A stretch of DNA of 32,290 nt from a bacterium (GTDB lineage: Bacteria; Patescibacteriota; Microgenomatia; UBA8517), in NCBI GenBank assembly GCA_021824915.1, contig JAKAJP010000030.1:1-32290 (forward strand), read 5' to 3'. The notes under the pieces are model-generated. The model worked only from the letters and a program-made list of their open reading frames with translations. It was not told where the DNA came from and did not search any database. Position 1 is the stretch's first letter. Each line of letters opens with the position of its first letter. The position numbers and the translations under genes were made by a program. Positions 2,177 through 21,886 of this stretch are shown here, in pieces.

Positions 2177-2919
2177 ATTTGTATTTTTGAGAAAAGATAA
2201 CTGCCGATGAGAAGAAATACGAATGTAATTACTGAAAGCACAAGCAGATCGAATCCTGTCCCAAATTGAGCAGCTCCTCCCAAAACTCCGCGCAGTCCGT
2301 CAATTCCATAAGTCATGGGGTCGATTTTTGTTGCAATTTCCATCGCTTTTGGTAGACCCTGGATGGGGTAGAGACTTCCTGATAAAAAGAAAATTGGCAT
2401 AACCAGAAAATTCATAATGAGTTGAAATCCCTGCATATCTTCCAGCATAGAAGCGATGGCCGTTCCCAGAGCTGTAAAAAGGAGGGCGATTATAAACATA
2501 AATAAGAGTGCCAGAGGAATGTGATAATAAGTTGTAAATCTGAAACCTACGAATGTGGAAAGAATTAAAACAACAATGCCCTGAAAAGTTGCAACCGTTG
2601 CGCCCCCTAAAGTCCGCCCCAACATAATTGAAAATCTTGAGACCGGAGCAACCATTGTTTCTTTTAAGAAACCGAATTGTCTGTCCCAAATGATTTCAAT
2701 TCCGGCAAAAATCGCAGTGAAGAGAATACTCATTGCAACAATTCCGGGAGCTAAAAATTGGATATAATTTCCTTGACCCGCTCTGGCAAAAACGCCGCCA
2801 AAGCCATAGCCGAAAGCGATTAAATAAAGAAGTGGCTGACCCAAAGATCCGATTATCCGGCTACGGGAGCGGAAGTATTTAACGACCTGTCTTTTCCAAA
2901 GTATGTAAATTTGTTCCAT
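2173..2919 (-). CDS. ABC-2 type transporter permease (DrrB/NodJ-like)
   Basis: About six TM segments, Y-x-x-FLAPGIVAM, DRQFGFLKE...APVSR, FFLSG and DPMTYGIDGLR motifs. Confidence 0.92.
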   Translation of the reverse strand: MEQIYILWKRQVVKYFRSRSRIIGSLGQPLLYLIAFGYGFGGVFARAGQGNYIQFLAPGIVAMSILFTAIFAGIEIIWDRQFGFLKETMVAPVSRFSIMLGRTLGGATVATFQGIVVLILSTFVGFRFTTYYHIPLALLFMFIIALLFTALGTAIASMLEDMQGFQLIMNFLVMPIFFLSGSLYPIQGLPKAMEIATKIDPMTYGIDGLRGVLGGAAQFGTGFDLLVLSVITFVFLLIGSYLFSKIQI

Positions 2920-3720
2920 TTAATGCCGGCCTCCCCAAACATGTCTTCGTTGTCTAAGCGCATCAAGAGCTCCGGCTTCTTCGTTTCTGATCTCGTGGCC
3001 CGTCAAATGTAGAAAAGCTTCTTCGAGGGAAGCGGATTTTGTCTTTTTCTTAAGTGCATTGGGTGTTCCCTCGGCAACAATGTTTCCGTGGTCAATAATT
3101 ACAATTCTGTCCGCGTTTTTTTCTGCTTCATCCATATAGTGTGTTGTAAAAAATACCGTCATTCCCTCCTTTTTGTTTATGTCTTTTAAGTAAGTCCACA
3201 TATGATTTCTGGTTTGGGGGTCAAGGCCTATCGTCGGCTCGTCCAAAAAGAGAATTTTTGGATGGTGCAGAAGGCCACGGGCAATTTCAAGTCTTCTTTT
3301 CATTCCGCCGGAAAATGTTTTAACAAGAGACTTGCTTCTGTCGGATAAATCAACAAATTTTAATAGATCTTCAATTCTCTTTTTTCTGGTATTTACGGGG
3401 ATTGAATATAAAACGGCATGCAGTTCCATGTTTTCCATTGCCGTCAGATCATCATCCAGTGACGGATCCTGAAACACTATTCCGAAACCGCGTCTTACCG
3501 CGTCCTGATCTTGAGAAGGATCTGCCCCATTAACTAATATTTTTCCCGAAGTTGGAGCTAAAAGAGTTGTCAGCATTTTTATTGTTGTTGATTTTCCGGC
3601 GCCGTTCGGACCGAGAAAAGCAAAAATTTCTCCCTTTTCGACACCAAAAGAAATATCATTAACTGCAGTAAACCCATTAAATTTTTTGGTCAGACTTTTA
3701 ACCTTTATTATTTTAGCCAT
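2920..3720 (-). CDS. ABC transporter ATP-binding protein (DrrA-like)
   Basis: Walker A GPNGAGKS, signature FSGGMKRR, Walker B ILFLDEPT, TTHYM. Start placed at ATG 3720 (MAKIIKV), which has TATGAT 6 nt upstream. The ORF track extends to 3768. Confidence 0.93.
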   Translation of the reverse strand: MAKIIKVKSLTKKFNGFTAVNDISFGVEKGEIFAFLGPNGAGKSTTIKMLTTLLAPTSGKILVNGADPSQDQDAVRRGFGIVFQDPSLDDDLTAMENMELHAVLYSIPVNTRKKRIEDLLKFVDLSDRSKSLVKTFSGGMKRRLEIARGLLHHPKILFLDEPTIGLDPQTRNHMWTYLKDINKKEGMTVFFTTHYMDEAEKNADRIVIIDHGNIVAEGTPNALKKKTKSASLEEAFLHLTGHEIRNEEAGALDALRQRRHVWGGRH

Positions 3721-3780
3721 CTGATGATCATATATTATCGTTGTGCTGGAATTCAAGCAATAAATCACTGATAATTAATT

Positions 3781-5799
3781 ATGGCTACCACAGATAGTCT
3801 TCCTGAGGTTGGGGATAGAGTGGACATTAAGAACTTGCTCCCTGTTTCTAATCCCGAAAATCGACTTTATGGCACAGCTATGGAAATCTGTGATTATACA
3901 GGGATTAAGCTTTCTGAAATTCCAGGTATTCCTCTAGAGCACAGAGTCAGATCGTCAATGTTGGCTTTAGGAAATCAGGGAATAAGAATGATCGATGGTA
4001 AGCCCGTTTCATTTATTTACATAAGTACATCCGTTAAGGAAGATGATTCGTTTGGCAAGTCTGTATTGGTGGAGGAAACCTTTCATCATATTCAGACCGT
4101 TATGAACAGTGCTTTACTTAAGGAGCGAGCAGAAGTTGAGACAGATAGAAGTTTTCAGTCTGACTATTCACAAAGTAGCGCTCTTTATGAAAATCTCAAA
4201 CAGTCTTCTGGTAAAGCAATGATTGAGTTTGCTTCGAAGACTGGAATCGATTCCAGTCTGCACCCCCAAACTGAAGCCGAAAAAGAGTTGGTGTTAAAGA
4301 GAAGAATAGAAAGACTTTCGCCGGAACAGGCGGCAAGACTTTATACCGCTCTTGACCAGATGGGCGTCGCCAGCGATGGTGAGAATGAACACAGACGATT
4401 TGTTGATAACGCAAAAGAGTATAGAAAAATCGAAAAGCGAATAGACGAGCTCAGAGAGGAGGAAAAAAATTTAGAATCATCGGATGACAGCATCAAATTA
4501 AGGGATATAAGAGAAAGAATACGGAGCTTACGTGAAGGTTTTGACGGCCTTGGAACCTTATCGAGTTTGATATCGTACCAACTTGAGCAGCGCATTGCGA
4601 GAGTGCCTGACGGACCAGAAAGAAGTTCGATTTTGGAAAAGGCCCTTGCAAAATCGTTCGTTGATCTGGATACACTTGGTGCGCAATCAATGTTGTATGA
4701 GGAGAGAATTAAAAACCTCACACCAGATCAAATCCGTAAAGCACTAGAAGATTATTTGGCGAGTAGACCGGATCTTGATTCACTTATTTTCTTGAATAGA
4801 GATTTGACCATAGAAGACAATGAAGAGCATTTGAAGGTTTTAAGGATATTGGAGAGTGGTGATCCGGAGTCTATGGAATATGAAAATTTGAGGCAAAGCT
4901 TCCAGAAAAGAATTGAGAATCAATTGCAGGTAGCCGGTGTTGACGACTTGGCTAAGTTTTACACCGAAAGTTTAATTTATTTAATGCGGGGTGTTGAAAA
5001 GTCCTTGGCCGCGAATGCTCTTGTTGAGGAAAATTTAATATTTTTGTTTGACGATTTACCCATGGACGATGAGACAAGAAAGAGGTTTGTTGGAAATTCT
5101 GAATTTATGCGCCAGCTTAGAGATTTTGTGTTGAAATCCGTCAAAAGCGGAGAACTTTCTCCGTTTGGTTCGGAAGGACTGGATGTTGGGCTATTCTCAT
5201 CCAGTAGAAAGGAAGCTGGGACCGTTCTCAAAAAGTCATTAAAACGACCGACGGATGATATTAATGCCACTGCCTTTTTGGCGGATATGAAATCGGCAAC
5301 TGAATATACAAGATCGAACATTAGTGGTGATCAATTTGATTTTATAGAGGCTGGTTCTGAGAGGAATATTGAAGTTAAATTAAAAGAGACGTTTCCGGAT
5401 AGAAGTATTGCTGATTTGCCTTCTGGAACAGAATTTAGAGATGCCCAACTGGCGGCGTACCAAGAGTCTGTTGAAATTGTGAGAAAATCTAGGAAAGAAA
5501 GTGAGCATAAACACTCGACAGACATCCTTATCGAACCAATAGCAAAAGTTATAAGTCAAAAGTTATCCGGGGGTACACGCAATGATATTGTCTTTCCCGA
5601 AACCATGATGGGTGGCTACACGATAATTCTTAGAACTCAAGAACTTAAAGAGTGGGTCGACAAGCTTTGGACTTATGTTGATAAAGTGCATGAATATAAG
5701 AACAGTGGTGGTGACGCCTCTTTGAGGGAATTTATACATGCCACCAGTTTGGATCAGCAGAGAGCGGTAGTCGAAAAATTTATAAAGGTGATAAAATAG
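3781..5799 (+). CDS. Large hypothetical alpha-helical/coiled-coil protein
   Basis: 672-aa uninterrupted ORF, charged and helical, containing VLVEETFHHIQ (EExxH). No family recognised. Confidence 0.75.
   Translation: MATTDSLPEVGDRVDIKNLLPVSNPENRLYGTAMEICDYTGIKLSEIPGIPLEHRVRSSMLALGNQGIRMIDGKPVSFIYISTSVKEDDSFGKSVLVEETFHHIQTVMNSALLKERAEVETDRSFQSDYSQSSALYENLKQSSGKAMIEFASKTGIDSSLHPQTEAEKELVLKRRIERLSPEQAARLYTALDQMGVASDGENEHRRFVDNAKEYRKIEKRIDELREEEKNLESSDDSIKLRDIRERIRSLREGFDGLGTLSSLISYQLEQRIARVPDGPERSSILEKALAKSFVDLDTLGAQSMLYEERIKNLTPDQIRKALEDYLASRPDLDSLIFLNRDLTIEDNEEHLKVLRILESGDPESMEYENLRQSFQKRIENQLQVAGVDDLAKFYTESLIYLMRGVEKSLAANALVEENLIFLFDDLPMDDETRKRFVGNSEFMRQLRDFVLKSVKSGELSPFGSEGLDVGLFSSSRKEAGTVLKKSLKRPTDDINATAFLADMKSATEYTRSNISGDQFDFIEAGSERNIEVKLKETFPDRSIADLPSGTEFRDAQLAAYQESVEIVRKSRKESEHKHSTDILIEPIAKVISQKLSGGTRNDIVFPETMMGGYTIILRTQELKEWVDKLWTYVDKVHEYKNSGGDASLREFIHATSLDQQRAVVEKFIKVIK
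5792..5797 (+). promoter_or_regulatory. -10 box (TAAAAT) of the original ychF promoter, leaderless type
   Basis: TAAAAT 6 nt upstream of ATG 5804, the same geometry as many other genes in the window. Confidence 0.55.
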
Positions 5800-5803
5800 C
5801 CTC

Positions 5804-5827
5804 ATGAGCCTTTCTGTTGGAATAGTC
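5804..5827 (+). pseudogene. ychF: Displaced original 5' end of ychF (MSLSVGIV) at attL
   Basis: ATG AGC CTT TCT GTT GGA ATA GTC encodes MSLSVGIV, matching LSVGIV of the ychF at 23436. The frame then diverges and stops at 5861-5863. Confidence 0.85.
5815..5826 (+). repeat. attL core (shared GGAAT at 5819-5823)
   Basis: 10/12 identity with 23456-23467. ychF-like coding stops immediately to its right. Confidence 0.75.
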
Positions 5828-5952
5828 AGAGCGGGAATCAACTTTTTCCATTCGAGCTTGTGATACCGTTACCCCCACCAAGAATAGCTAGACTAATAGT
5901 TCAACGGGACAAGTGGGGAAGAATTGTACATTCAGAAGCTCCATTGTTTTGA
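5821..5952 (+). other. Detached 3' end of the recombinase gene (start-less frame NSQSGNQLFPFELVIPLPPPRIARLIVQRDKWGRIVHSEAPLF*)
   Basis: Open frame of 43 codons plus TGA, in frame with the recombinase when GGAAT 23460-23464 is joined to GGAAT 5819-5823. Confidence 0.7.
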
Positions 5953-6098
5953 GTTAATTTAGGGAAAATATTCTTTTTCTATTCCAGACCGCCTCTTGCG
6001 GTGTTAAAATTGCAATATAAAATTATTAAAATATAGACAATGGTTTTATGAGTAAAAATATGAACTGGTTAAATTAATAGCCTTTTTGATCTAAGAAA

Positions 6099-7031
6099 AT
6101 GGAACAAAGGAATTTAGAAGTTGGTGGTAGAGAGTGGGCGTATATAAAAGATAGAGTGCTTGGGAGAGGGAAAATTTACCGTAGTTTAGATGGCACTCAA
6201 TATATGCATACTGGGAGTGTTGCGGAGGTCGGCAATGAAGCGAATTTTATTGAGCAGCTTCATGGTCTTAATTTTCCGGTGCCAAGGATACTTAGTAAGG
6301 GAGAAATCGGAGGAATTAACTACTACATTGAGGAATCAGTTGGGGACATGAGTTTCGGTGAAAAATTTCGCCATGAATACACCTTGCATCAAAAAGTGAC
6401 TGGAGAGACGTTTGAAGGATTTTGCAATATAGCGTGTCAATTCCTGGAAGCGCAATTGAATAATCCAACAGACAGAAGGAGTGAAATAAGGGAAGGGGTA
6501 CATCTATCTAACGTTTTGCAAGAAAATCCAGATCTTAGAGACAAAATTTTCCCATGCATTAGTATGATAGAAACAAATTTGCAACAAATTCCACTCGTAT
6601 TGACCCATGGAGATTTTTCCCCAAGAAATACTTTTACTAAAGGAGTTATTGATTTTGAGCATAGGTTCATTGCTCCCGTCGGTTATGATGTTCTTACGGG
6701 TATAACAATTCAGCGCTTTTGGGATTTTAAGGATAGTGATGGAGAGACTCAGCTTGATTTTGACGTCGAGTCAGGTCAAGTTGCGGATTATTTTAGAAAA
6801 TTAGACAATATCGCTGAGCATTATAAAATAGGGCAATTATCGAGGTTTGCGGATGATTTCGTTGTACTTAAGGCTATTTGGTCTCTTGCTTACGAAAAGC
6901 AATTTGCTAGTCAAACAGGAAACAATTTAAAAAGAAACTTTCGTAAGGCTGTTTTGGTTTATTGTATGGATCAATATATGAATGGCAGACCAGTAGACAC
7001 TAGTAGTTTTAAAAAGTTTGGACAACAATAG
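6099..7031 (+). CDS. Aminoglycoside phosphotransferase / choline kinase-like protein
   Basis: Brenner motif LTHGDFSPRN, metal-binding VIDFE, PVPRIL, and APVGYD after DFE. Confidence 0.82.
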   Translation: MEQRNLEVGGREWAYIKDRVLGRGKIYRSLDGTQYMHTGSVAEVGNEANFIEQLHGLNFPVPRILSKGEIGGINYYIEESVGDMSFGEKFRHEYTLHQKVTGETFEGFCNIACQFLEAQLNNPTDRRSEIREGVHLSNVLQENPDLRDKIFPCISMIETNLQQIPLVLTHGDFSPRNTFTKGVIDFEHRFIAPVGYDVLTGITIQRFWDFKDSDGETQLDFDVESGQVADYFRKLDNIAEHYKIGQLSRFADDFVVLKAIWSLAYEKQFASQTGNNLKRNFRKAVLVYCMDQYMNGRPVDTSSFKKFGQQ

Positions 7032-7057
7032 AGTAGCGTTGATATAGAATTGAAGTT

Positions 7058-8680
7058 ATGACTAAATTACCAAAGACGATTGAGAATTTATTTTATAATC
7101 CGGAGACGGATTCTGTAGACTCATTACTAAAAGATATTAAGGAGACTCATTTGCATATTTTAGAAAACACGGACTTGTCGAAAGGAACTCTTTCCTCAAA
7201 ACCCGAAGATTATGTGTATGTAATAAAGGATTTTAAAATTCCAAATAACGGAATAGGCCAAGGTTCGTTTGACTCAATTATACCCGCGCTTTTTCGTGGT
7301 GTATCCAGGTGGCACTCTCCTCGAACAATGTATAATGTCGCTCCGCCGCCAATATTACCAACAGTTGTTGGTAAAGTTTTCACTTCACTGTATAACCCAA
7401 ATTTAGCCTTAGACACCGCAGCAGGTAAAAGTCTTTTAACCGAACAGGAAGTAATAAAAGCGATTGCAGATTATATCGGTTGGGATCGAGAAAATGCTGG
7501 TGGAATTTTTACCTGGGGTGGAAAGGCAACAATAATGTATGGTATTAAATTAGGACTAAAAAATTGTTCACCAAATTCTTCTACGCAGGGTGCAAAAGAA
7601 GACGTTGTTGTTCTCTCGACGGTAGCTGGTCATCCATCTCATATACAGGATGCTAATTGGCTGGGTATCGGGACGGACAATGTGATTAGGTTGGAAGTTG
7701 ATAGGGATGGTAAAACGGATGTGAATCAAATGGAACAAGTAATTAAAAAAGTGACCAGAGAGGGTAAAAAAATTGCAGCCATTATTGTTTCAGGAGGAAC
7801 AACCAATAGTATGGTGGTGGATCCAATCGAAAAGGTTGTCGAGTTGAGAAATAGACTTGTAAATGAACTTTCCCTGAAGTATATACCTCATATTCATGTT
7901 GACGCCGTGGTTGCCTTCCCATGGATATTTTTTAAAGACTATAATTTTGGATTAAACAATCTTGATATTGAGGCAGAGGCACTGGAAAGAATATTGAAAA
8001 TAATAAAGGATCTGAAATGTATATATCTGGCTGATTCATTTGGCATAGACTTTCATAAAATGGGTTTTTGTCCTTATATATCAAGTGCCTTTCTCGTTAA
8101 GGACAAAACTCTATTAAGTGGAAAGGAAGACCTTCAAAATTGGCCATTTTTATATTCGATGGAGAATTCTAGAGCTGGTGACGGTCCAAACTCCGCTTTT
8201 ATTGCTTTAAGCGCTTTGGGTGTAAAGGGTTTTCAGGTTTTAATTGCACATTTGACTGAGATGGCGGTGCATTTACAGAATGAGATAGAAAAAACAGGAA
8301 ATTTTGAGATAATAAATAAAACAGGACTCGGAACTTCGGTTATGTTTATTCCACGTATTCCTAAAGGTTTAACTTTCCCAAATTTAGAAATAGAATCGAA
8401 GGTCAGAAATTTTTATACAGCAAGTTTTATCGAAGAAATGTCAAAATTAGGGAATCCTTATTATATTGATAAAATACCCGGCAACTCCACTGGATCCAGC
8501 CCTTTTCCGCTAACATCATTAAAAGCTTACATAATGTCGCCATTTTCAAGCAAAGAAAATAATCTTTCTTTTGTGGAATTTATTGTTGAATTAAAGCGAA
8601 AAATAGATATGAAATTCGATTTTCATAATACAAATATTAAGTCTTCGGATGTTGAATTTTTCCATCCCCTAAAAGGATAA
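7058..8680 (+). CDS. Group II PLP-dependent decarboxylase
   Basis: GIFTWGG, SGGTT, HIHVDA and ADSFGIDFHK(MGFCPY) with the PLP lysine. Confidence 0.88.
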   Translation: MTKLPKTIENLFYNPETDSVDSLLKDIKETHLHILENTDLSKGTLSSKPEDYVYVIKDFKIPNNGIGQGSFDSIIPALFRGVSRWHSPRTMYNVAPPPILPTVVGKVFTSLYNPNLALDTAAGKSLLTEQEVIKAIADYIGWDRENAGGIFTWGGKATIMYGIKLGLKNCSPNSSTQGAKEDVVVLSTVAGHPSHIQDANWLGIGTDNVIRLEVDRDGKTDVNQMEQVIKKVTREGKKIAAIIVSGGTTNSMVVDPIEKVVELRNRLVNELSLKYIPHIHVDAVVAFPWIFFKDYNFGLNNLDIEAEALERILKIIKDLKCIYLADSFGIDFHKMGFCPYISSAFLVKDKTLLSGKEDLQNWPFLYSMENSRAGDGPNSAFIALSALGVKGFQVLIAHLTEMAVHLQNEIEKTGNFEIINKTGLGTSVMFIPRIPKGLTFPNLEIESKVRNFYTASFIEEMSKLGNPYYIDKIPGNSTGSSPFPLTSLKAYIMSPFSSKENNLSFVEFIVELKRKIDMKFDFHNTNIKSSDVEFFHPLKG

Positions 8681-8727
8681 GGTTTGTTTTGCAAGCCTAT
8701 TGTGATAAAATCTCAGCCATAGAACCC

Positions 8728-9963
8728 ATGATAAAACAAAAAACAAATAGCCAGCCTACACAAGTCTTAAGCAGTTTAGAAGAAGCGAGGGTTAATGTAC
8801 CTTTAGAGAACCCCAATTTGCCAATGCCGCTCAAGTTTGAAGTATCAAGGCCTGAAATTATAAAAAAGTCACTAGCGATTAAAGATCTTACTTTACCAAC
8901 TGAAAGTGGGCAGGAAAGAAGCGTTGTTGGAAAGGTTTTTGATCAGGTTGTAGAAAAATTAAAAGAGCATAATTTTTCTGATATTCATATAGTGAGAGGA
9001 AATCCCATTGTTGAAGTAAGAGATAATTTTGATAAACTCCTCTTTTCGCCAGGAAATCCAGGAAGGTCATCAACTTACACTAGGTACACCGATGAGAATC
9101 ATGTATTAAGAACCCACACGTCAGCACTAATACCATCAACTTTTGAGAAATTGGATAAAAAAGATTTAGACCGCTCGACTTTTGTACTCCCAGGCTTAGT
9201 TTATAGAAGAGATGTGATTGATCCTAAACACTTGGACGTGTTCCACCAAATTGATGTATGGACACTTCAGAAAAACAAAAAATACGGAAAGACAAATAGA
9301 AAAGATTTGTTAGAGCTTGTTAAAGCCGTGTTCGAAGCAGCCTGTCCGGGTGCTGAAATGAAAATTAATGAGGTAAAGCACCCCTATACTTTAGATGGTA
9401 TAGAGGTTTATGCGAAAATTGATAACAAAGAGATAGAAGTCCTCGAAGCTGGGTTGGCGCACCCCACAGTGTTAAGTAATTCTGGCATTAATCCTGAAGA
9501 ATACTCGGGTTTGGCTTTGGGTATGGGTGTTGAACGCCTAATCATGGCACGAAAAGACCTACCGGATATCAGGTTAATTCGATCGACAGACCCCCGTGTA
9601 ATTAAACAAATGACGAATATGGAAAAGTATAGGAGTGTCTCTAATCAGCAAGCCATGTCGAGAGATATGTCCTATTGTGTTGAGAAAGACGAAACAGAGG
9701 AAGATATCTGCGAAGCTATTAGGGTTGCGTTTGGGGAGAATAGCGATTTGTTGGAAGAGGTTAAGATTTTAGAGAGAACTCCATACGAAAAATTGACTCC
9801 AATTGCTAGAAAAAGACTCGGTGCATCAAAAGATCAAGTTAACGTTTTGGTAAGAATTGTTTTAAGACATCCCGACAGAAGCTTGACCAAAAGGGAGGCT
9901 GCGGATTTGTACTCCTCTGTTTATCCAAAATTACACCAAGGGTCAACTTTGGGATATGAATAA
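8728..9963 (+). CDS. Single-chain PheRS-like class II ligase with C-terminal FDX-ACB-like domain (PheS-related 'SrmL'-like / mitochondrial PheRS-like architecture)
   Basis: DNFDKL, VLRTHTSA, motif 2 GLVYRRD...HLDVFHQ, motif 3 GLALGMGVERL, PDIRL, then SRDMS...LRHPDRSLT. First ATG is 8728; the ORF track opens at 8689. Confidence 0.85.
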   Translation: MIKQKTNSQPTQVLSSLEEARVNVPLENPNLPMPLKFEVSRPEIIKKSLAIKDLTLPTESGQERSVVGKVFDQVVEKLKEHNFSDIHIVRGNPIVEVRDNFDKLLFSPGNPGRSSTYTRYTDENHVLRTHTSALIPSTFEKLDKKDLDRSTFVLPGLVYRRDVIDPKHLDVFHQIDVWTLQKNKKYGKTNRKDLLELVKAVFEAACPGAEMKINEVKHPYTLDGIEVYAKIDNKEIEVLEAGLAHPTVLSNSGINPEEYSGLALGMGVERLIMARKDLPDIRLIRSTDPRVIKQMTNMEKYRSVSNQQAMSRDMSYCVEKDETEEDICEAIRVAFGENSDLLEEVKILERTPYEKLTPIARKRLGASKDQVNVLVRIVLRHPDRSLTKREAADLYSSVYPKLHQGSTLGYE

Positions 9964-10615
9964 TAATCGGCGTAAGCGTCTAATCACCTTAAGAGAAGCG
10001 TATGAAAAGGAACCTTACAGTGTTAAGCTTAGTGGCCTCAACCTTAGGATAGAAAAAGGTGTTTTTCCTCCTGATGTATCATTTGCTACTCTAAAACTTG
10101 GGAAAATTCTGGGTAACTATCGTCCCGAATCAGCAATAGACATAGGAAGCGGGTCTGGATATCTTGCATTTGTGCTGAAACGAAATGGTGTTCAAAGAGT
10201 ATTTGCAAGTGACATAAATCCGGCCGCAATTAATTGCATAAAAGAAAATGTACGGTTAAATCCCGGCTGTAATCTTAACGGAATTTATTTGAGTGACCTT
10301 TTTAGTAATCTTAAAGAGAACTTAAAGTTTGATCTTATTATCTTCAATCATTTTTACCGTCCCGAAGGAACGGGTATTTTTGGTCCAGTAAACGATGCGG
10401 GAAAAGAGATAATTGAACGGTTTTTGACACAATCAAAACAAAGATTAACTCAAAACGGTGTCATTATTATGAACTTTGTTGAGATGTCTGATCCTGAGAA
10501 TAGCCCGGCAGCAATTGCGAAGCAGATGGGTTATAAGGTGAAAGTATTATTCCAAGAGAGTAACTATCAAAATATGGGTAATTTCTTTGTTTACGAATTT
10601 AAACTGCCAAGTTAA
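9956..10615 (+). CDS. Class I SAM-dependent methyltransferase (HemK/PrmC-like fold)
   Basis: GVFPP, IDIGSGSG, SDINPAA, SDLF, KFDLIIFN. Overlaps the ligase stop by 8 nt. Confidence 0.85.
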   Translation: MNNNRRKRLITLREAYEKEPYSVKLSGLNLRIEKGVFPPDVSFATLKLGKILGNYRPESAIDIGSGSGYLAFVLKRNGVQRVFASDINPAAINCIKENVRLNPGCNLNGIYLSDLFSNLKENLKFDLIIFNHFYRPEGTGIFGPVNDAGKEIIERFLTQSKQRLTQNGVIIMNFVEMSDPENSPAAIAKQMGYKVKVLFQESNYQNMGNFFVYEFKLPS

Positions 10616-10616
10616 T

Positions 10617-12068
10617 TTATCGGCTAATATACTCATCTAGCTTGATAATTGAAGGCAATTTAATCTTGTCTTCTTTGTGAGTTTTATTATAGAAATCCTC
10701 TGCAATCTTTTCGTACATCATTGAGTATATTCTGATGGTCAGTTTCTGGTCATCAATGGTCGAGAGTCTGTCTAATTCTTCCTTGATAACTCTTTCACCA
10801 GCACAAGCTTTAATAAAACTTTTAAACAGATCTTTCGATGTCAAAGTTCCGGTCTCATAGGCGTCAGTAAAGTACCATCTATTAGATTTTTCACCTAATA
10901 AGGGGTGTAACATTTGCCTTAAATCGATGTTGTGCCCTAAAGCCACTTCATCATTTTTTATCAATTGCCACTGTTGTAATGCACCTTGATGTATATCAAA
11001 GTACACAGACGACATTCTTCCTCCGTACTTATCGTGTGCGTATTCTGTAACTTCGGGATTATATTTTGTCAAACGAGGCGCAAATGTAGAATAATTGACA
11101 ATAAAAGTAATTAATCCAATCTGGTTGTTGTTTTTGTCTCTTAATTTTAGGTAAAAATGAAAATCAAGTTCGGTGTTTAATGCTTGTTTGGGGATATTAG
11201 CCACATCATCATTATTCTTATTTTCAACAAGCTTTCTCAAGGATTTATAGCTACCAGCCTTAATATATTCTTCTACTCTCAAGATATAGGGCATAGAAAT
11301 TTCGATAGTGTCAATATTTCCCCTTGCCATTTTAAGATACCAAGCTACCACATCGATATAGTGATAGCTTGTGTGAGAGAGTGTGCCAACCCCGTCAATG
11401 TGTCCGTGCGCGCCACCCTTAAGATATTCGCTTGGATATTTATGAATTCCCCCGTTGATTATAACGTTCATATATCTAATTCCTTCACCAGTCTTTAAAT
11501 ATATTTTATTTAACCCATCTGCTACTTTGATAAAAGGGATTAGCGCTCTTCTTCGAAGGGGAGAGCAAAACATGTAGTTTTTATTTTCCTTTTTGATTTT
11601 GTCATATAATAAATTTAATTTTTCATATTTTTTCTGAATTGACCGAGCTTGATTTATATCTAGAGAGCTATTCATATTGGTAACTAAAGGTTTATCACAA
11701 AGTAAATTTATTTTATTTTTAAGTGCCCATTCGCAGTAAAAATAGTGATGAACAGGGTCTGTCGCAACAATTACCGCATTAATTAGCTTTTTTATATTAA
11801 GTTGATCTAATTCGTATTGTAGTTGGTCGGGTGATTTTCCAGACGTATCAATCCATTGTGGGTTATCTAGTTCTAAAATCTTTTTGAGGTTGTCACGTAT
11901 TTCCTGTTTTTCTGTATCCCTTGGATTAACCGGATCACAGATCGCCACGACTTTTACATTCATGCCCTCTGATTTCAGACTAAGAATCGAGGAATAATGA
12001 TTCTTTTCAGTCCACAAGCCACTACCACCGGCAACAAGAATGTTTATTGTTTTAGAATTCATTCCCAT
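10617..12068 (-). CDS. Gfo/Idh/MocA-family NAD(P)-dependent oxidoreductase
   Basis: N-terminal Rossmann ILVAGGSG, VVAICD, AVIVATDPVHHY, LLCDKPL, and GTLSHTSYHYID (H-x-x-D catalytic region). Confidence 0.8.
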   Translation of the reverse strand: MGMNSKTINILVAGGSGLWTEKNHYSSILSLKSEGMNVKVVAICDPVNPRDTEKQEIRDNLKKILELDNPQWIDTSGKSPDQLQYELDQLNIKKLINAVIVATDPVHHYFYCEWALKNKINLLCDKPLVTNMNSSLDINQARSIQKKYEKLNLLYDKIKKENKNYMFCSPLRRRALIPFIKVADGLNKIYLKTGEGIRYMNVIINGGIHKYPSEYLKGGAHGHIDGVGTLSHTSYHYIDVVAWYLKMARGNIDTIEISMPYILRVEEYIKAGSYKSLRKLVENKNNDDVANIPKQALNTELDFHFYLKLRDKNNNQIGLITFIVNYSTFAPRLTKYNPEVTEYAHDKYGGRMSSVYFDIHQGALQQWQLIKNDEVALGHNIDLRQMLHPLLGEKSNRWYFTDAYETGTLTSKDLFKSFIKACAGERVIKEELDRLSTIDDQKLTIRIYSMMYEKIAEDFYNKTHKEDKIKLPSIIKLDEYISR

Positions 12069-12134
12069 ACGTCACATTTGAGTATTAGTATATCAAGATT
12101 TAATAGCAAACTATAATTTGGAAGGAACCCTTAT

Positions 12135-13565
12135 TTAGAAAAGTTCGTTTTGGTCAGCTTTGACTTCAGCCCTTTTGAAAGGGTTTATTTTATCCGTTGG
12201 TAGTTTTAGCCCCTTGCCTTCAAACCACTCCTTTACTGAAAGTAGTTGTATTTTGGGGAAAGATGTTGATTCAGAGTATCTATATTCTCCGGCTAAAGCA
12301 GCTTCTCTTTTCATCTCGCTTGTAGGTTCGTGTAATGTTATTAAAACTCCCATAGGCGCACTATCCCTTTCAATATCTCCCTTGAGCGTTGAAACTTCAT
12401 TCCGGTGGTTTGTGTTTCCGCCCTTAACTTGAACAATAATCTTTTTGAGCTTGGGATTTCTTAAATCTTCTCTATCATAAAAAAGGATAATTCCATCAAT
12501 ACCCCTGTCTGCGCCTTTCTTTGTCTCACCACTTGGGGGGCTGGCCCCAACAAGAGTTATTGCCCAATCTTGAAATGAAAACTTATCTTTTTCAGCCAAA
12601 CTTACTGCTGACTCAAAATCCATTGGTATTCCATCGAGATGTATTTGTATTCCGGGGTAATGAGCATTCATTCTTTGGTTTATAACATTTACTGCTTGCA
12701 TACTAATGTCTATCCCAGCCCAGTTTCTGTTTAATCTTTCGGCGACTGCAACCGTAGTTCCGCACCCACAAAACGGGTCTAAAATCCAATCACCCTCTTT
12801 AGATGAAATTTTGATTATTCTTTCGAGGAGTTTTTCGGGTTTTTGTGTAGGATAATCCAATCTTTCTTTATCCATAGGGTTTAAAGCTGGTATTTCCCAG
12901 ACATCCATAGGAATTTTGTAAATATCATTTGCACCAATCCTTGCCCCTTTGGGATTTTGAGCTCTTTCCATAGCTTTTTCTGTTCTTTTATCAGGGTCGG
13001 CCATTGGGTCAAAATGATAATCATCAGTTTTTGTGTAGAAGAGAATAATGTCGTGTTTTTTTGAATAATGCTGTTTGCTAGCTCCTCCAGTTTGATAATG
13101 CCATACAATTTCATTCCTGAAATTTTCCTTTCCAAAAATCACATCCATAATGATTTTTAGATAATGGCTTGCCGTCGGATCGCAATGCAAATATATTGAC
13201 CCGGTTGTTTTCAAAACGCGATGAAGAGGCATAAGTCTTGCAGTCATATTGACCAAATAGGCCATCATTTGGTTTTGACCGATAAATTCTGAAAGGCTGT
13301 TTATAAGTATGGCTATTTGTGGTTTTGGATTGTTTTTTAATTCGTTAAATATCCTTACTGTATCTTCCGTCCATTCCCAAGTATCCTCGAAGGCGTGAAT
13401 TTGGGCTGAGGAATCAATCTGACCTTCCTTGAAAAGTACGTTGTAGTTACGGTTTGAATTGAATGGGGGATCAAGGTATATTAAATCAAAGAAATTTTCA
13501 GGGATTTTCTCTTTCAATACCTCTAAGTTATCTCCAAAAAAGAGAGTTCTGTTTTGAATATCCAT
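12135..13565 (-). CDS. Amino (N6-A/N4-C) DNA methyltransferase, beta class, fused to a C-terminal Mrr-like endonuclease domain
   Basis: GDNL, DLIYLDPPF, YPTQKPE, ILDPFCGCGTT. The C-terminus has GADRGIDG...IVQVKGG (Mrr-type D...QxK). The ORF track opens at 13571. Confidence 0.9.
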   Translation of the reverse strand: MDIQNRTLFFGDNLEVLKEKIPENFFDLIYLDPPFNSNRNYNVLFKEGQIDSSAQIHAFEDTWEWTEDTVRIFNELKNNPKPQIAILINSLSEFIGQNQMMAYLVNMTARLMPLHRVLKTTGSIYLHCDPTASHYLKIIMDVIFGKENFRNEIVWHYQTGGASKQHYSKKHDIILFYTKTDDYHFDPMADPDKRTEKAMERAQNPKGARIGANDIYKIPMDVWEIPALNPMDKERLDYPTQKPEKLLERIIKISSKEGDWILDPFCGCGTTVAVAERLNRNWAGIDISMQAVNVINQRMNAHYPGIQIHLDGIPMDFESAVSLAEKDKFSFQDWAITLVGASPPSGETKKGADRGIDGIILFYDREDLRNPKLKKIIVQVKGGNTNHRNEVSTLKGDIERDSAPMGVLITLHEPTSEMKREAALAGEYRYSESTSFPKIQLLSVKEWFEGKGLKLPTDKINPFKRAEVKADQNELF

Positions 13566-13660
13566 ATTCAATTGCTACAAACAGTCCCAATATAGCAGAA
13601 CTATAAAAATGCTACAAGGAGAAGCTGGTCTATCAGTCCCATTTAGCCTAGCCTTGGGGT

Positions 13661-13882
13661 ATGAAAGTTGTTTCAGAAGCTCATAAAAGGTTTGGCCAAA
13701 GATTAAAAATTTTAAGAAAAGAGCAGGGAATGACGCAGGAAGATTTAGCGTTTAAAGTGGGAGTTGATAGAAGTTATATGGGTTTTATCGAGAGGGGAGA
13801 GAAGAATGTTACTCTTAAAAGACTAGTTGATATAGCTAAAGCTTTTAGGGTGTCTCTTTCGGAGCTCTTCAAATCAATTTAA
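13661..13882 (+). CDS. XRE-family HTH regulator, similar to RM controller (C) proteins
   Basis: FGQRLKILR...MTQEDLA...DRSYMGFIERGEKNVTL. Divergent from the methylase gene. Confidence 0.88.
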   Translation: MKVVSEAHKRFGQRLKILRKEQGMTQEDLAFKVGVDRSYMGFIERGEKNVTLKRLVDIAKAFRVSLSELFKSI

Positions 13883-13980
13883 TAAACTTGCAATTTTAGT
13901 GGTAATATACAGGTATAAAACACCCTTGATAAATGGGCTTTTTTTGTAGCTAGTCTTTTACTAGAAAAATTACAATTAAT

Positions 13981-15813
13981 ATGACAACGGAAAGAGTGGA
14001 TGAGTATTATCGCTGGGTTTTAGATAGGCTGAAAGAGCTTCTGGATACTTCTCCCTCAAATAAACCAATTCGCTATGAGTTAAGTCATGTAGCTGCGGCT
14101 GGCGTGCCCAACAATGAGACTGAGGAAAACATTGTTAGAAAGTTGGCAGAACTAGGCATCGTCAAGATAGTAGGGGAACATCCAAGAACTTGGGAATATA
14201 CACATAACGGTTACTTTGAGCTTTTGATTCTTCAACCCCAATTTGACGAACTATGTAGAAAGTTTGGTGTTATTGAGGAAGCTAATAACAAAATTGACGT
14301 AAAGCCTAAAGCTGAAGAACCTAAATTTTTAGAAATCGAAGATTTGTCCGAGGATACACTTCTGCCTGTTTGGTGGGTAATAAAAAGAGTAAAAAACGAA
14401 TATTTAGCCACTATGGAGGGTGAGGAGGTGTTACTTAAATTTGTTCCTGGGGAAGTCATAATTGCTGGAAACCAAAGGACTATCCCAGATTTGGAGGATC
14501 AGAAACTCGCAGTTAGATTGCTGCAAAAAATGGGAGCAATAAAGATTAAAAGTGACTATTTTACCCCCAAAGGGGATAATCGTTTTTATGTTCCTAAAGG
14601 TCAGGCGCCAAATGGGTATTATCTTGATATTTTACAACCTAGGTTTGATGAAATTTATAAACAAAGTGAGAAGGGGAATACGTCACCCAGACAACAAGAA
14701 GAACAAATTGATTTAATACAAGAAGACGAGCCAGTTGAAGTGATTTCGGCCGACCTCAAGGCCTTATTCTCACGAGTTGTCGCTGAGCAGGATGAAATTA
14801 ACTTTTATTTCAAAATTGCAGCATACGGAAAGTATTTAATAGATCACCCCCAGTTGAATCCAATTTTAAGTAATCTTTATGGGCAATCGAAAAAGGATGC
14901 CTTAGGCTTTTTGAAAATATGGGGAGAGTTCTTTGAATTGTGGAAACAGTTGGGTCAAGAATTAGTTGACCTGGCAGAAAAAAATGGTATCAAAGGAAAT
15001 CCTGATATACTTAATCAGGATCTAGCGAGACTAAAACAAAGGTTGGCGGAGCCAGATTTATCGTTTTATTCAGGAGATCTTTACAGCTACTACAGGCCAT
15101 ATTGTGATCTGATAGGCACTTTTGTACGAGAACAAAGGTCGGATTTAGTTGTTCCAAAGTATCTCGATAAAAATTTAGTTAGCTTAACCATTGATCCAAA
15201 ATATAGAGCAGCAACAGAAAGTTGGGATTTGTATGTTAAACAGCGTGTTAATGAACCATGGTGGGCGCACTATCAGATAATGAGATTGACTTCCGGCGTC
15301 CTCGATTTGCCAGACAAAAAGCTATATTTCAAGGATGATAATTTTGTAGACACGCTTTATAAAACAGGGTTTAATGAGCTTGGTAGAGGAATAAAACTCA
15401 GCTTTCTTAATAAGAATAAATTTACGGAATGGATAAAAATACTGCATGATTATATTATCCCGCGACTTGCCAAACTAAATAAAGACAAGGGTGGTATTTT
15501 TTCAGGTTTTAAAGCAATGATCCTGGGTGGTGACAAAATGACAAAACGTGAGCGAGATAAAGAGTTTAATCGACTAAAGAAAGTTTGTGACCTGAGTACA
15601 AAACAAGAAAGTTTGCTTAGGATTTTATTTGATTTCAGGCCACACGATACCAAAAACCTTGAGTCAGATGTGCCGACTAAAGCACTTTCCCATCTTAAGG
15701 ATTCACTAAATGGGAATATTAAAAGGGAAGCATATACGATTGATTCTAAGCTAGGAGGACCACTTGATAAATCTTTTTATACCTTGAGAAAGATCATCGA
15801 TGAAAACAAATAA
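13981..15813 (+). CDS. Hypothetical protein with an internally duplicated N-terminal domain
   Basis: 610-aa ORF with two similar segments ending LLILQPQFDEL and LDILQPRFDEI. Confidence 0.75.
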   Translation: MTTERVDEYYRWVLDRLKELLDTSPSNKPIRYELSHVAAAGVPNNETEENIVRKLAELGIVKIVGEHPRTWEYTHNGYFELLILQPQFDELCRKFGVIEEANNKIDVKPKAEEPKFLEIEDLSEDTLLPVWWVIKRVKNEYLATMEGEEVLLKFVPGEVIIAGNQRTIPDLEDQKLAVRLLQKMGAIKIKSDYFTPKGDNRFYVPKGQAPNGYYLDILQPRFDEIYKQSEKGNTSPRQQEEQIDLIQEDEPVEVISADLKALFSRVVAEQDEINFYFKIAAYGKYLIDHPQLNPILSNLYGQSKKDALGFLKIWGEFFELWKQLGQELVDLAEKNGIKGNPDILNQDLARLKQRLAEPDLSFYSGDLYSYYRPYCDLIGTFVREQRSDLVVPKYLDKNLVSLTIDPKYRAATESWDLYVKQRVNEPWWAHYQIMRLTSGVLDLPDKKLYFKDDNFVDTLYKTGFNELGRGIKLSFLNKNKFTEWIKILHDYIIPRLAKLNKDKGGIFSGFKAMILGGDKMTKRERDKEFNRLKKVCDLSTKQESLLRILFDFRPHDTKNLESDVPTKALSHLKDSLNGNIKREAYTIDSKLGGPLDKSFYTLRKIIDENK

Positions 15814-15960
15814 CAACAGTATTTCAAGGCTAATTAATTCACCGATACCTCATGTTTATTTTTGAATAGCAGATATTTAGCTTCAAAAATTTCAATTATT
15901 ACTTTCGACTGGTGAGCATAGACAGGTCAAAAATAAAGCTGGTTACGTTTTTGAAAATTT

Positions 15961-16233
15961 ATGACTATGACTCAAAATCTAGATATCAATGACTATTACT
16001 CGACTTCAGATCTCGCGTTAGCAACCGCGATTTCTCTTTATTATCCACTTGAGGTGGTTGACCGTAGCAATCCCCATAAGGCTCAATTTCTTTTCAAAAG
16101 AGATGACAACCTGGATAAATTTATAGAATCGTATTGGAGAGGAGATCTTAAAGTAAGTCCTTCTTCTTATTTTAATCAGCTAAAAATCATAAAAGCCCGG
16201 CTTTACGAAATGGAAAGGAGCCGCAATGGCTAA
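15961..16233 (+). CDS. Small element protein, DUF5659-like
   Basis: YSTSDLALATAI...FLFKR...YWRGDLKVSP-x-x-YFNQLK-x-x-KARLY pattern, recognised from memory. Confidence 0.7.
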   Translation: MTMTQNLDINDYYSTSDLALATAISLYYPLEVVDRSNPHKAQFLFKRDDNLDKFIESYWRGDLKVSPSSYFNQLKIIKARLYEMERSRNG

Positions 16234-16414
16234 AATTAAAGTTACTTTTGAACAGGTGGAATTGAGTAAGGAGGAGTTAAAAAATCGCATTGATTCCATT
16301 TTTGATATTTTGTTTGAGGAAATTGTGAAGTCGTCAGTACGGCCAAATAAGAATATTTCTATAGATCGCGTGGATGGCGGGAGGGAGGTGAATGAACAAA
16401 TATGCCTAAGTTAA
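16226..16414 (+). CDS. Small hypothetical protein
   Basis: 62-aa ORF with an AGGAG SD. Overlaps both neighbours. Confidence 0.55.
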   Translation: MAKIKVTFEQVELSKEELKNRIDSIFDILFEEIVKSSVRPNKNISIDRVDGGREVNEQICLS

Positions 16415-16815
16415 TTTTCAAAAAAAGAGTAGTTCCGGATGCGGGGAAAATAATGACCCATTTGGTCTCAGTTGGCGAAGTGGAGAACCAGTTTTACAAC
16501 CCAAAAGAGCAAAGTGAGGATAAAAAGACGCAGTTGGAATGGATTTTTGAGTACACGGACAAGCCGGGAATGCAAATACGGCTTTGGTCTACCAAAAGTC
16601 TATCAACTTACAAGGGTAAGAAATCCAAAGCTCTAACTATTACTGAATCCTTGCTGGATAAAGAACTGACTGATGAAGAAAAAGAAAGTTTTGGAGATAC
16701 CGATCAGTTGGTTGGACGAAAGTGTTATCTAACTGTTAAGCACGAGAAGAAAGATGACGGTCAGATTTACGCAAAAGTAGTTGATTTTGAAAGCGAATCA
16801 GGAATTCCCTTTTAA
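16402..16815 (+). CDS. Putative phage-type single-stranded DNA-binding protein (OB-fold-like, acidic IPF tail)
   Basis: Beta-rich, LVGRKCYLTVKH...YAKVVDF, ends ESESGIPF. Strong GGAGGTGA SD; sits directly upstream of the primase. Confidence 0.6.
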   Translation: MPKLIFKKRVVPDAGKIMTHLVSVGEVENQFYNPKEQSEDKKTQLEWIFEYTDKPGMQIRLWSTKSLSTYKGKKSKALTITESLLDKELTDEEKESFGDTDQLVGRKCYLTVKHEKKDDGQIYAKVVDFESESGIPF

Positions 16816-16822
16816 CTTTCAT

Positions 16823-16851
16823 TCCGGGCGTAACTTCAAATTGCGCCTGGA
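16823..16851 (+). promoter_or_regulatory. Intergenic RNA hairpin upstream of the primase gene
   Basis: TCCGGGCGTAA-(7 nt loop)-TTGCGCCTGGA: 11-bp stem with two G-U pairs and no U-tract. Confidence 0.5.
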
Positions 16852-16865
16852 GACGAGAGCTGAAT

Positions 16866-19202: not shown

Positions 19203-19507
19203 TTACAGAAACAATAAAAGAAACACTTGAGAAATATATTCGGCTTTGCTCTTGGTTCCTGATTAAAGACGGAGATAAAGACGTTGCTTCGAATCAATTT
19301 GAGACAGTTTTAAAGGAAATTGGGAATTTGGAAGACAAGCTGATTGGAGAAGGTGTCTCCGGGAAAACTATTGAGACGATTGTTGAGATGACAAGAAAAA
19401 ACACTTTAGAGAAACCAATAAGTGAGTTAAGCGATTCTCAATTACTCAAGGTTTGTAAATTGATATTTGGTAAGGAAGTTGAATTTGAGGGGGGTGCCAC
19501 CCCATAA
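19199..19507 (+). CDS. Hypothetical protein
   Basis: 102-aa ORF coupled to the primase stop (ATGA overlap). Confidence 0.65.
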   Translation: MITETIKETLEKYIRLCSWFLIKDGDKDVASNQFETVLKEIGNLEDKLIGEGVSGKTIETIVEMTRKNTLEKPISELSDSQLLKVCKLIFGKEVEFEGGATP

Positions 19508-19518
19508 GCGTAACTTAT

Positions 19519-19908
19519 ATGGAAGAAAAACCACAATGCAGTTTTATAAAAGAAAATGGGGAGAGATGTAATGCTATACCTATGAAAGATAGTGGCTATT
19601 GCTTTAGCCACAATCCTGATGTGGAAGTTGAGCGCCATATGGCTTTGGTTAAGGGTGGTTTGGCCAGTAAGAAAGTAGAGTTAAACCTTGAACCCTTGAG
19701 CATAAAAGACCCTAAAGAAGTGGCCACCTTGCTTGAAAGCACAATTAACGGTGTAAGAAGTGGTGAGATTCCACCCAATATTGCAAACACGATTGGTTAC
19801 CTCGCAGGGCACGTTCTGAAGGCCCTGGAATCATCGAACTTAGACCAGAGAGTGGAAATGGTAGAGAGCATTCTTTTGGAACGTAAGCGAAGCATAAAGA
19901 AGCACTAA
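19519..19908 (+). CDS. Hypothetical protein with N-terminal C-x9-C-x10-C-x2-H putative zinc finger
   Basis: QCSFIKENGERCNAIPMKDSGYCFSH followed by KGG and a helical C-terminus. Confidence 0.72.
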   Translation: MEEKPQCSFIKENGERCNAIPMKDSGYCFSHNPDVEVERHMALVKGGLASKKVELNLEPLSIKDPKEVATLLESTINGVRSGEIPPNIANTIGYLAGHVLKALESSNLDQRVEMVESILLERKRSIKKH

Positions 19909-19909
19909 A

Positions 19910-21652: not shown

Positions 21653-21656
21653 AATA

Positions 21657-21685
21657 TTGCAAAGTATTACAAAGTAATCTAATAT
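21657..21685 (+). promoter_or_regulatory. Sigma70 promoter of the xis-recombinase unit, overlapped by a tandem 10-bp repeat
   Basis: TTGCAA-17 nt-TAATAT, 6 nt before ATG 21692. ATTGCAAAGT ATTACAAAGT at 21656-21675. Confidence 0.65.
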
Positions 21686-21691
21686 GAATCT

Positions 21692-21883
21692 ATGGAAGAA
21701 TTTTACACAACAAGACAAATTGGAAAGATGCTTCATGTTAAAGCCATTACCATAAGGCGTTGGATATCTAAAGGCGATTTACCCGCACTTTTCTTTGAGA
21801 AGGAATATAGAGTAATAAAATCGGATTTTGATAAATTTATTCAAAGTAAAAAAGTTCAAATAAAGAAAGGAAAGGGTAAATAA
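21692..21883 (+). CDS. Excisionase-like HTH DNA-binding protein
   Basis: FYTTRQIGKMLHV-x-x-x-TIRRWI-x-x-GDLPA...YRV-x-x-SDFDKFI, a MerR-like Xis fold. Immediately upstream of the recombinase. Confidence 0.85.
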   Translation: MEEFYTTRQIGKMLHVKAITIRRWISKGDLPALFFEKEYRVIKSDFDKFIQSKKVQIKKGKGK

Positions 21884-21886
21884 AAA

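Follow-up and report, generated by a model that had tools for sequence, protein, structure and literature searches.

Antibiotic gene clusters may encode a self-resistance aminoacyl-tRNA synthetase (aaRS), as do those for mupirocin (IleRS), borrelidin (ThrRS) and albomycin (SerRS). In Enterococcus and Lactobacillus, the tyramine cluster has the gene order tyrS-tdcA-tyrP-nhaC. The tyrosine decarboxylase (TDC) cluster of Enterococcus durans carries an extra tyrS beside the decarboxylase gene, induced at tyrosine scarcity, according to the account of this gene in PMC3315439. We describe here a locus of related design in a Microgenomatia bacterium of the candidate phyla radiation (CPR). It lies on contig JAKAJP010000030.1 of assembly GCA_021824915.1, analysed over positions 1 to 32,290 (hereafter the window), and comprises genes for an APH-family kinase, a group II pyridoxal phosphate (PLP)-dependent decarboxylase, a paralogue of phenylalanyl-tRNA synthetase (PheRS) named SrmL, a methyltransferase and a Gfo/Idh/MocA oxidoreductase (Table 1). 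We propose, with a probability of about one half, that these genes, the methyltransferase excepted, form an accessory module that makes an amine derivative from an aromatic amino acid, with a spare PheRS protecting translation; we infer the substrate, the product, the roles of the kinase and of the dehydrogenase, and the protective role of SrmL.

The likeness to the TDC cluster, as far as PMC3315439 describes the latter, is that of a group II PLP decarboxylase accompanied by an extra aaRS gene for the amino acid consumed, the aaRS of the CPR module being presumed cognate. The CPR module differs in having no antiporter and no T-box leader, in its class II PheRS-type enzyme as against a class I TyrRS, and in its co-evolving kinase and Gfo/Idh/MocA genes. 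The pairing of a decarboxylase with its cognate aaRS, described in lactic acid bacteria, would thus extend to a different phylum, aaRS class and gene set, and it suggests that translation may in general be shielded in this way where a pathway depletes an amino acid or yields a mimic of it. With self-resistance aaRS the module shares a divergent second aaRS in an accessory, transferable cluster, the housekeeping enzyme being retained; unlike them, the SrmL type is itself the housekeeping enzyme in many relatives.

The five genes are intact and stand where a first-pass annotation of the sequence had placed them, as four co-directional, tightly spaced genes and a convergent one a single nucleotide away; the open reading frame (ORF) table agrees exactly, and the family calls hold in Pfam. 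The kinase and decarboxylase genes are separated by 26 nt and the decarboxylase and SrmL genes by 8 nt, the SrmL and methyltransferase genes overlap by 8 nt, and the single base 10616 lies between the methyltransferase stop and the end of the convergent gene. The start of SrmL can be read in two ways, as the database gene call of 411 aa (ATG at 8728) or as 424 aa from the TTG at 8689.

SrmL had been called a PheRS-like ligase in the first-pass annotation; it is of PheRS type, and its family already has a name. It matches NCBIfam NF051887 ('PheS-related mystery ligase SrmL') with 389.5 bits against a curated cut-off of 300 (E = 1.3e-116, profile positions 8-349 of 349), as well as tRNA-synt_2d (129 bits), and FDX-ACB below the cut-off (27.3 bits against 31.1). 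The closest structural counterpart that we discuss is human mitochondrial PheRS (FARS2; PDB 3CMQ, 5MGH and others), which is also a single chain with a class II core and a C-terminal FDX-ACB domain. The phmmer alignment spans both parts at 21-22% identity, with HPYT in SrmL against FPFT in the mitochondrial enzyme and with a conserved N-terminal extension of about 60 residues in SrmL. An AlphaFold2 (AF2) model built from 38 sequences (mean predicted local distance difference test, pLDDT, 89) aligns in Foldseek to the mitochondrial enzyme with a template modelling (TM) score of 0.69-0.73 across the catalytic and anticodon-binding domains (about 410 columns), the score against 3CMQ and 5MGH being 0.71-0.73 over both domains. 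LRTHTS, motif 2 (YRRD...FHQ) and motif 3 (G-x-A-x-G-x-G-x-E-R) are kept in all the aligned SrmL sequences. To our knowledge, a monomeric PheRS is otherwise a mitochondrial feature.

The strongest indication of function comes from genomes that carry SrmL at loci without the decarboxylase. In 26 of 35 and 3 of 5 such genomes (29 of 40), which are metagenome-assembled genomes (MAGs) of unstated completeness, SrmL is the sole match to PF01409 at E up to 1e-20, and the same HPYT pocket motif is found in these SrmL-only genomes. Three of them (G401-G403) have no pheS or pheT match apart from SrmL itself. The PheT editing domain B3_4 was found in 6 of 36 genomes (the 35 and the decarboxylase-bearing G446), all six of which have a canonical-level PheS match, and was not found in the other 30. 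As tRNA-Phe must be charged and SrmL is the sole PheRS-type gene in most of its carriers, SrmL is most likely a working monomeric, editing-free PheRS, with the charging of tRNA-Phe as its predicted activity, and probably serves as the monomeric PheRS of many CPR bacteria. Contrary to the 'mystery ligase' of its name, NF051887 would thus have PheRS among its CPR members, probably including the window protein and the second copy of a Nomurabacteria locus (388.3 bits), both above the cut-off. The family would in this way gain a testable identity as a single-chain, editing-free PheRS, the sole one in many ultra-small bacteria. It is also large, and identity does not fall below 67% for any of the best 120 cluster representatives.

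In the window genome, SrmL is an extra copy, as canonical pheS and a pheT, the latter over its cut-off, lie on contig C26. Canonical PheS is likewise present in all seven decarboxylase-bearing genomes tested (that of the window and six others), and in all seven the extra PheRS is non-canonical and monomeric. The Nomurabacteria genome (G407, loci L009 and L218) has three PheRS-type genes, namely a canonical PheS and two SrmL (419 and 370 aa, 41% identical) that flank the decarboxylase cluster.

One might suppose instead that SrmL is a pathway enzyme, adenylating an amino acid and then forming an amide by its transfer to some acceptor, be it the product amine of the decarboxylase or another, as PoxA-type or amino acid:carrier-protein ligases do. 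The pocket motif altered to HPYT/GLALG, the weak FDX-ACB match, the absence of a dedicated tRNA gene nearby and the tight spacing of the SrmL and decarboxylase genes would all suit such a role. Proteins with the same pocket motif must, however, charge tRNA-Phe in the SrmL-only genomes; five SrmL genomes searched whole have no decarboxylase, some decarboxylase loci use a monomeric FPFT/FPYT PheRS or canonical pheS-pheT, and both domains of SrmL superpose on mitochondrial PheRS. We regard the amide ligase as distinctly improbable. Of the two roles for aaRS paralogues that had been named in the first-pass annotation, self-protection fits well, and amide formation does not, SrmL being the only PheRS-type gene in most carriers; for its further suggestion of a modified tRNA or protein we found no evidence.

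ARAGORN predicted no tRNA gene within the window; across 28 loci it placed neither a tRNA-Phe nor an unusual tRNA next to SrmL. No SrmL relative was found in viral contigs. Among the literature matches listed, the string SrmL occurred as an unrelated abbreviation and never in this sense; our literature searches found nothing on a monomeric PheRS in CPR or Patescibacteria, and the main text of PMC12455944, on genetic exchange in Patescibacteria, contains none of the terms searched for.

Several other genes related to SrmL or to monomeric PheRS were found. Relatives of SrmL with 36-45% identity occur in Actinomycetota (Pseudonocardia, Nocardia, Actinoplanes, Arthrobacter) and proteobacterial MAGs (L247-L280, e.g. 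L256, L263, L270, L276); they have no decarboxylase, kinase or Gfo/Idh/MocA gene nearby, and the FHQ/GxAxGxG motif pair was searched for in them and not found. Four genomes (G424, G430, G432, G439) combine SrmL with a second monomeric-type PheRS (167-204 bits, PF01409) and have no B3_4, so that two single-chain PheRS types stand together. In five more CPR genomes (G015, G092, G173, G206, G358; loci L199-L206), a sub-cut-off monomeric PheRS of about 380-410 aa has FPYT and a strong FDX-ACB match; full pheT was found in none of these five, all that were tested, and just upstream there is only a small frame (about 134-154 aa) that corresponds to PheT positions 41-152. A monomeric enzyme and a small tRNA-binding protein seem to have taken the place of canonical PheRS there.

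In a sample of 401 genomes of the phylum, neither the decarboxylase nor an above-cut-off SrmL was found outside the window's own genome, and the genomic context was therefore drawn from scans of larger collections. Collections of genomes and metagenomes were scanned with a 37-sequence decarboxylase alignment, and loci with at least 42% identity to the window decarboxylase were kept; two duplicates (L099, identical to L009, and L117, identical to L018) and two very short contigs (L027, L156) were dropped. After clustering of all ORFs and merging of loci at 95% decarboxylase identity or more, 32 distinct non-window loci from CPR and DPANN genomes remained. Of the 32, 18 have a PheRS-type gene no more than 8 kb from the decarboxylase; among the 21 whose flank measures at least 6 kb, 16 do. 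The kinase and the Gfo/Idh/MocA gene recur in 8 of the 32 each, the kinase gene being immediately upstream of the decarboxylase in the APH-bearing loci mapped. The first-pass annotation had reasoned that homologues never found together and of unrelated phylogenies would mean an accidental accretion; here they do occur together. The five well-flanked loci with no PheRS-type gene (L018, L020, L021, L116, L120) are archaeal, three by their label and the other two by neighbour families in common, and every well-flanked bacterial locus has a PheRS-type neighbour. Two of the five have another aromatic aaRS: the decarboxylase of L021 is immediately preceded by a bona fide TyrRS (380.6 bits, cut-off 220), and in L120, an unlabelled metagenome contig, a 641-aa fusion of an archaeal-type TrpRS (TIGR00233, 215.5 bits against 176.75) with a class IV aminotransferase lies directly downstream (positions 2177-4102). 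The PheRS type varies among the bacterial loci as well: some have a monomeric PheRS with FPFT/FPYT in place of SrmL, and in L097 canonical pheS-pheT adjoins the decarboxylase.

As a control, 118 loci of wider-family decarboxylases (1.52 Mb, other phyla, 31-40% identity) contained no PheRS-type gene, no copy of this kinase and one Gfo/Idh/MocA gene. Distances among the decarboxylases are closely matched by those among the kinases (Mantel r = 0.96) and among the Gfo/Idh/MocA proteins (r = 0.94; p = 2e-4 and 9 loci in either case), although the loci are interrelated, so that these p-values and the counts above overstate independence. These data argue for a strictly linked pair, a CPR/DPANN-specific decarboxylase clade and a spare aromatic aaRS, carried on serine-recombinase elements in organisms thought to be nearly devoid of accessory metabolism.

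The enzymes themselves can be placed by family more readily than by substrate. The decarboxylase matches Pyridoxal_deC (PF00282; 63.1 bits, cut-off 27), its PLP-lysine motif H333-K334 is invariant in 37 sequences, and its clade counts about 90 cluster representatives at 45% identity or more. In PDB profile searches it matches GADL1 and the tyrosine, diaminobutyrate and glutamate decarboxylases (E = 1e-24 to 1e-19) with none clearly best, and no NCBIfam equivalog comes near its cut-off. Only its neighbours point to a substrate: in bacteria these are PheRS types, in archaea TyrRS or TrpRS. The kinase (Pfam APH, 37.5 bits, cut-off 23.2) keeps the catalytic motifs HGD...RN and IDFE across 8 orthologues (H170-G171-D172, N177 and, as the metal-binding Asp, D185), and its only match in the PDB profile search is a weak one to methylthioribose kinase (E = 6.6e-4). 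The oxidoreductase (Pfam GFO_IDH_MocA N-terminal domain, 33.5 bits, cut-off 24) shares with 8 orthologues, without exception, a His/Tyr/Asp cluster and K126-P127 of the [ED]KP motif. Its AF2 model (pLDDT 79, several low-confidence loops) matches structures of the family, in which a C-terminal alpha/beta domain follows the N-terminal Rossmann domain, and is closest to Gal80p and to sugar C3-dehydrogenases (glucuronide-3-dehydrogenase, DgpA, levoglucosan dehydrogenase) at TMq 0.49-0.54, so that the predicted fold appears closer to sugar dehydrogenases than to 2-hydroxyacid dehydrogenases; PDB profile matches were weak and confined to the Rossmann parts of family members. For both the kinase and the oxidoreductase, the ESM Atlas gave generic family names only.

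On these grounds, the module probably transforms an amino acid, itself probably aromatic, and the amine derived from it, with a phosphorylation or nucleotidylation and a redox step to follow. At the core of the module, which would move horizontally in CPR and DPANN, stands a group II PLP decarboxylase of a distinct clade; the kinase and the dehydrogenase, the latter of a sugar-type NAD(P) kind, diversify with it. The decarboxylase may convert phenylalanine or a close aromatic amino acid to the amine, and the kinase and dehydrogenase may modify this amine or a sugar-like partner. While the module is active, the spare PheRS would maintain the charging of tRNA-Phe, the need for it arising either from a depleted amino-acid pool, the explanation proposed for the enterococcal tyrS, or from inhibition of the canonical enzyme by the product. 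Self-resistance to such a product is equally compatible with the data, and would also account for the non-canonical nature of the spare enzyme in the seven genomes.

Apart from the interrelatedness of the loci, several observations weigh against this proposal. SrmL distances track those of the decarboxylase weakly (Mantel r = 0.28, p = 0.07, 14 loci). Most SrmL genes are solitary, a decarboxylase lying within the flank in 5 of 45 SrmL-anchored loci, so that the dependence is one-way: the decarboxylase module brings a PheRS, and SrmL needs no module. In keeping with this, five close SrmL homologues (68-74% identity, other CPR genomes) have none of the other four genes within 8 kb, and a search of their whole genomes with the window decarboxylase as query found no orthologue. 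All SrmL have HPYT and GLA[LS]G (HPYT/GLALGMG in the window) where the aligned canonical and monomeric PheRS, among them the other CPR monomeric clade (FPYT/FPFT and GWAFG), have FPFT/FPYT/FPFV and G[FW]AFG, at positions that we take to line the phenylalanine pocket (FPF[TV] and G[FW]AFG), and the phenylalanine specificity of SrmL rests on the sole-copy status described above. Acidic, diamino and aromatic decarboxylases score alike against the window decarboxylase in PDB and NCBIfam. The cassette genes include no amino-acid/amine antiporter (Pfam), and neither a T-box nor any other Rfam match was found, so that the acid-stress logic of the lactic acid bacteria is not reproduced. Lastly, the proposal leaves the aminotransferases, nucleotidyltransferase, nucleoside enzymes and radical SAM proteins of other loci unexplained.

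The composition of these other loci is diverse. One cluster consists of IlvE, SrmL, a 352-aa protein with a faint GTP-cyclohydrolase-II-like C-terminus, Gfo/Idh/MocA, kinase, decarboxylase and a second SrmL; another of kinase, decarboxylase, a HisC-like aminotransferase, Gfo/Idh/MocA and SrmL. A third variant has a monomeric PheRS, a class IV-like aminotransferase, an AMP-nucleosidase-like enzyme, a methyltransferase, a nucleotidyltransferase, the decarboxylase, a phosphoribosyltransferase and a thioester-reductase-type short-chain dehydrogenase/reductase (SDR). Elsewhere the decarboxylase is accompanied by a radical SAM/SPASM protein, a 633-aa protein without assigned family and a HisC-like aminotransferase, or it stands in a cluster of RidA, a DAO-type oxidase, decarboxylase, nucleotidyltransferase, SrmL, a homoserine-kinase-like APH, an MppP-like PLP enzyme and a 2-hydroxyacid dehydrogenase.

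Such partners invite the view that the locus is a small biosynthetic cluster whose product is a bioactive conjugate, made up of a modified sugar or nucleoside and an aromatic amine or amino acid, that possibly inhibits an aaRS or the ribosome. SrmL would then be purely an immunity PheRS, and the SrmL-only genomes would be naturally insensitive or carry resistance only. The similarity of the oxidoreductase model to sugar C3-dehydrogenases agrees with this, as does the occurrence in other loci of aminotransferases, AMP-nucleosidase-like, APRT/HPRT-like and NDT-like enzymes, Nudix enzymes, a nucleotidyltransferase, a thioester-reductase-type SDR and methyltransferases, and the fact that the extra PheRS was always non-canonical and monomeric in the genomes tested. 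Nucleoside salvage genes are, however, common in CPR genomes, and the nucleoside enzymes recur mainly in one lineage; the aminotransferases are IlvE-like or HisC-like and not of the sugar type, and the L097 locus has canonical pheS-pheT beside its decarboxylase. The puromycin and cystocin clusters offer a comparison, with an NAD-dependent dehydrogenase acting on a ribose hydroxyl (the nucleotide dehydrogenase Pur10 in puromycin-type clusters), an aminotransferase, a Nudix enzyme, methyltransferases and an aminoacyl donor, families with analogues in some relatives of the cassette; the pur and cst enzymes listed in PMC11641026 include no decarboxylase. As far as that list allows the comparison, the decarboxylase is central in the CPR module only, the aminotransferases are of another family, and no Pur6-like family was recognised in the genes scanned. 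We consider a biosynthetic cluster of this kind unlikely, if worth keeping in view. One might speculate further that CPR and DPANN share a transferable pathway from an aromatic amino acid to a phosphorylated or sugar-linked amine directed against hosts or competitors, possibly poisoning the two-subunit PheRS, with SrmL as the immunity enzyme, and that the SrmL-only lineages replaced their canonical PheRS under that pressure; this is a bolder idea, and we hold it to be rather less probable still.

The aminotransferases raise yet another possibility, a salvage route in which phenylalanine or another amino acid is made from host hydroxy or keto acids by a dehydrogenase and an aminotransferase for the adjacent PheRS, the decarboxylase and kinase being side branches. 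An aminotransferase does lie within 8 kb in 14 of the 32 loci; it may be HisC-like, class IV-like or a bona fide IlvE (353.6 bits, cut-off 279). In one type of cluster there are, besides, RidA, a DAO-type oxidase, a homoserine-kinase-like APH and a 2-hydroxyacid dehydrogenase. We find this improbable, since the window cassette has no aminotransferase (Pfam), the oxidoreductase fold resembles sugar and not 2-hydroxyacid dehydrogenases, and the constant partner is the decarboxylase rather than an aminotransferase, although the selection of loci by decarboxylase imposes that last pattern. Phosphoserine/SepRS-like, Kennedy-pathway and methionine-salvage schemes were also considered and rejected; each covers two or three genes only, and none covers the link to PheRS.

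The methyltransferase, which the first-pass annotation had counted as a member of the cassette, does not share in the recurrence. It was found in none of 5 SrmL-anchored, 41 CPR/DPANN decarboxylase and 118 wider-family loci, and is treated here as a local addition despite its 8-nt overlap with the SrmL stop. Its match to Pfam MTS is clear (48.9 bits, cut-off 23), with all NCBIfam matches under the cut-off. HemK/MTS N-methyltransferases have an (N/D)PPY catalytic motif; the window protein has NHFY at this place, and its S-adenosylmethionine (SAM) motif I (DIGSGSG) is present. In PADLOC it matches the mad2 methyltransferase domain, a component of MADS (E = 2.6e-16).

This last match, the restriction of the gene to the window locus, and the position of the cassette on a mobile element beside a restriction-modification-like module are what one would expect if cargo genes had accumulated by accident, or if the locus were a phage-defence system. 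Four of the five families, however, recur together and co-diversify, with none of this in the 118 control loci; PADLOC gives no family for the kinase, decarboxylase, SrmL or Gfo/Idh/MocA protein, PHROGs gives no match for four of the five genes, and the search of viral contigs found no SrmL. Accidental accretion is thus largely refuted for four of the five genes and the defence reading is unsupported, both being very improbable explanations of the locus.

That the cassette lies in a mobile context, on a serine-recombinase element, is confirmed. The AT-richness and mobile setting seen in the first-pass annotation hold: GC content is 0.34-0.39 across about 6-16 kb, whereas the outer flanks (1-2.5 kb and 23.5-32 kb) have 0.42-0.45, genes of the element lie alongside, and two genomes of the same family retain both flanks and match no gene of 3781-23503. 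Kept in both relatives are SSB, a 169-aa ORF and YchF on one flank, and an ABC ATPase, an ABC-2 permease and a 105-aa ORF on the other. On L019 and L098, too, serine recombinase genes follow SrmL at a distance of a few kb. The recombinase ORF runs 68 nt (23436-23503) into the start of ychF, which suggests integration at the 5' end of that gene. The exact left edge of the element was not located; between the two edge zones the longest exact repeat is 11 nt and lies inside genes, and the lack of an informative att repeat is as expected for a serine recombinase. A scan for promoters and terminators gave the same counts as shuffled sequence and was uninformative, and Rfam found no riboswitch or T-box in the window, including 5700-6200 at E up to 1.

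Table 1. Genes of the cassette and of its surroundings in the window
Feature	Position	Strand	Length and support
APH-family small-molecule kinase	6099-7031	+	310 aa; Pfam APH
Group II PLP-dependent decarboxylase, CPR/DPANN clade	7058-8680	+	540 aa; Pfam Pyridoxal_deC
SrmL-type monomeric PheRS paralogue	8689-9963	+	424 aa from TTG; NCBIfam NF051887
MTS/HemK-like SAM methyltransferase, specific to the window locus	9956-10615	+	219 aa; Pfam MTS
Long Gfo/Idh/MocA oxidoreductase	10617-12068	-	483 aa; Pfam N-terminal domain
Restriction-modification-like module (context)	12135-15813	mixed	Pfam and PADLOC
N6_N4 DNA methylase fused to Mrr_cat nuclease domain	12135-13571	-	Pfam; PADLOC Type II MTase, E = 6.8e-63
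C-protein-like helix-turn-helix (HTH) protein, divergent from the methylase	13661-13882	+	PADLOC control protein, E = 3.7e-18
610-aa ORF without assigned family, possible nuclease of the restriction-modification-like module	13981-15813	+	
Prim-Pol/PriCT_1	16866-19202	+	Pfam
HTH_17	21692-21883	+	Pfam
Large serine recombinase	21887-23503	+	Pfam

The open frame of YchF is 368-374 aa in the relatives and 326 aa in the window. At 29181-29879, a release-factor-like ORF of 232 aa holds the C-terminal part of the PCRF domain and an RF-1 domain with GGQ, with no N-terminal domain in frame. Finally, a 290-aa ORF at 31127-31999 matches the catalytic part of HisRS only (tRNA-synt_His), without the anticodon-binding domain, and may be HisZ-like or a truncated HisRS.

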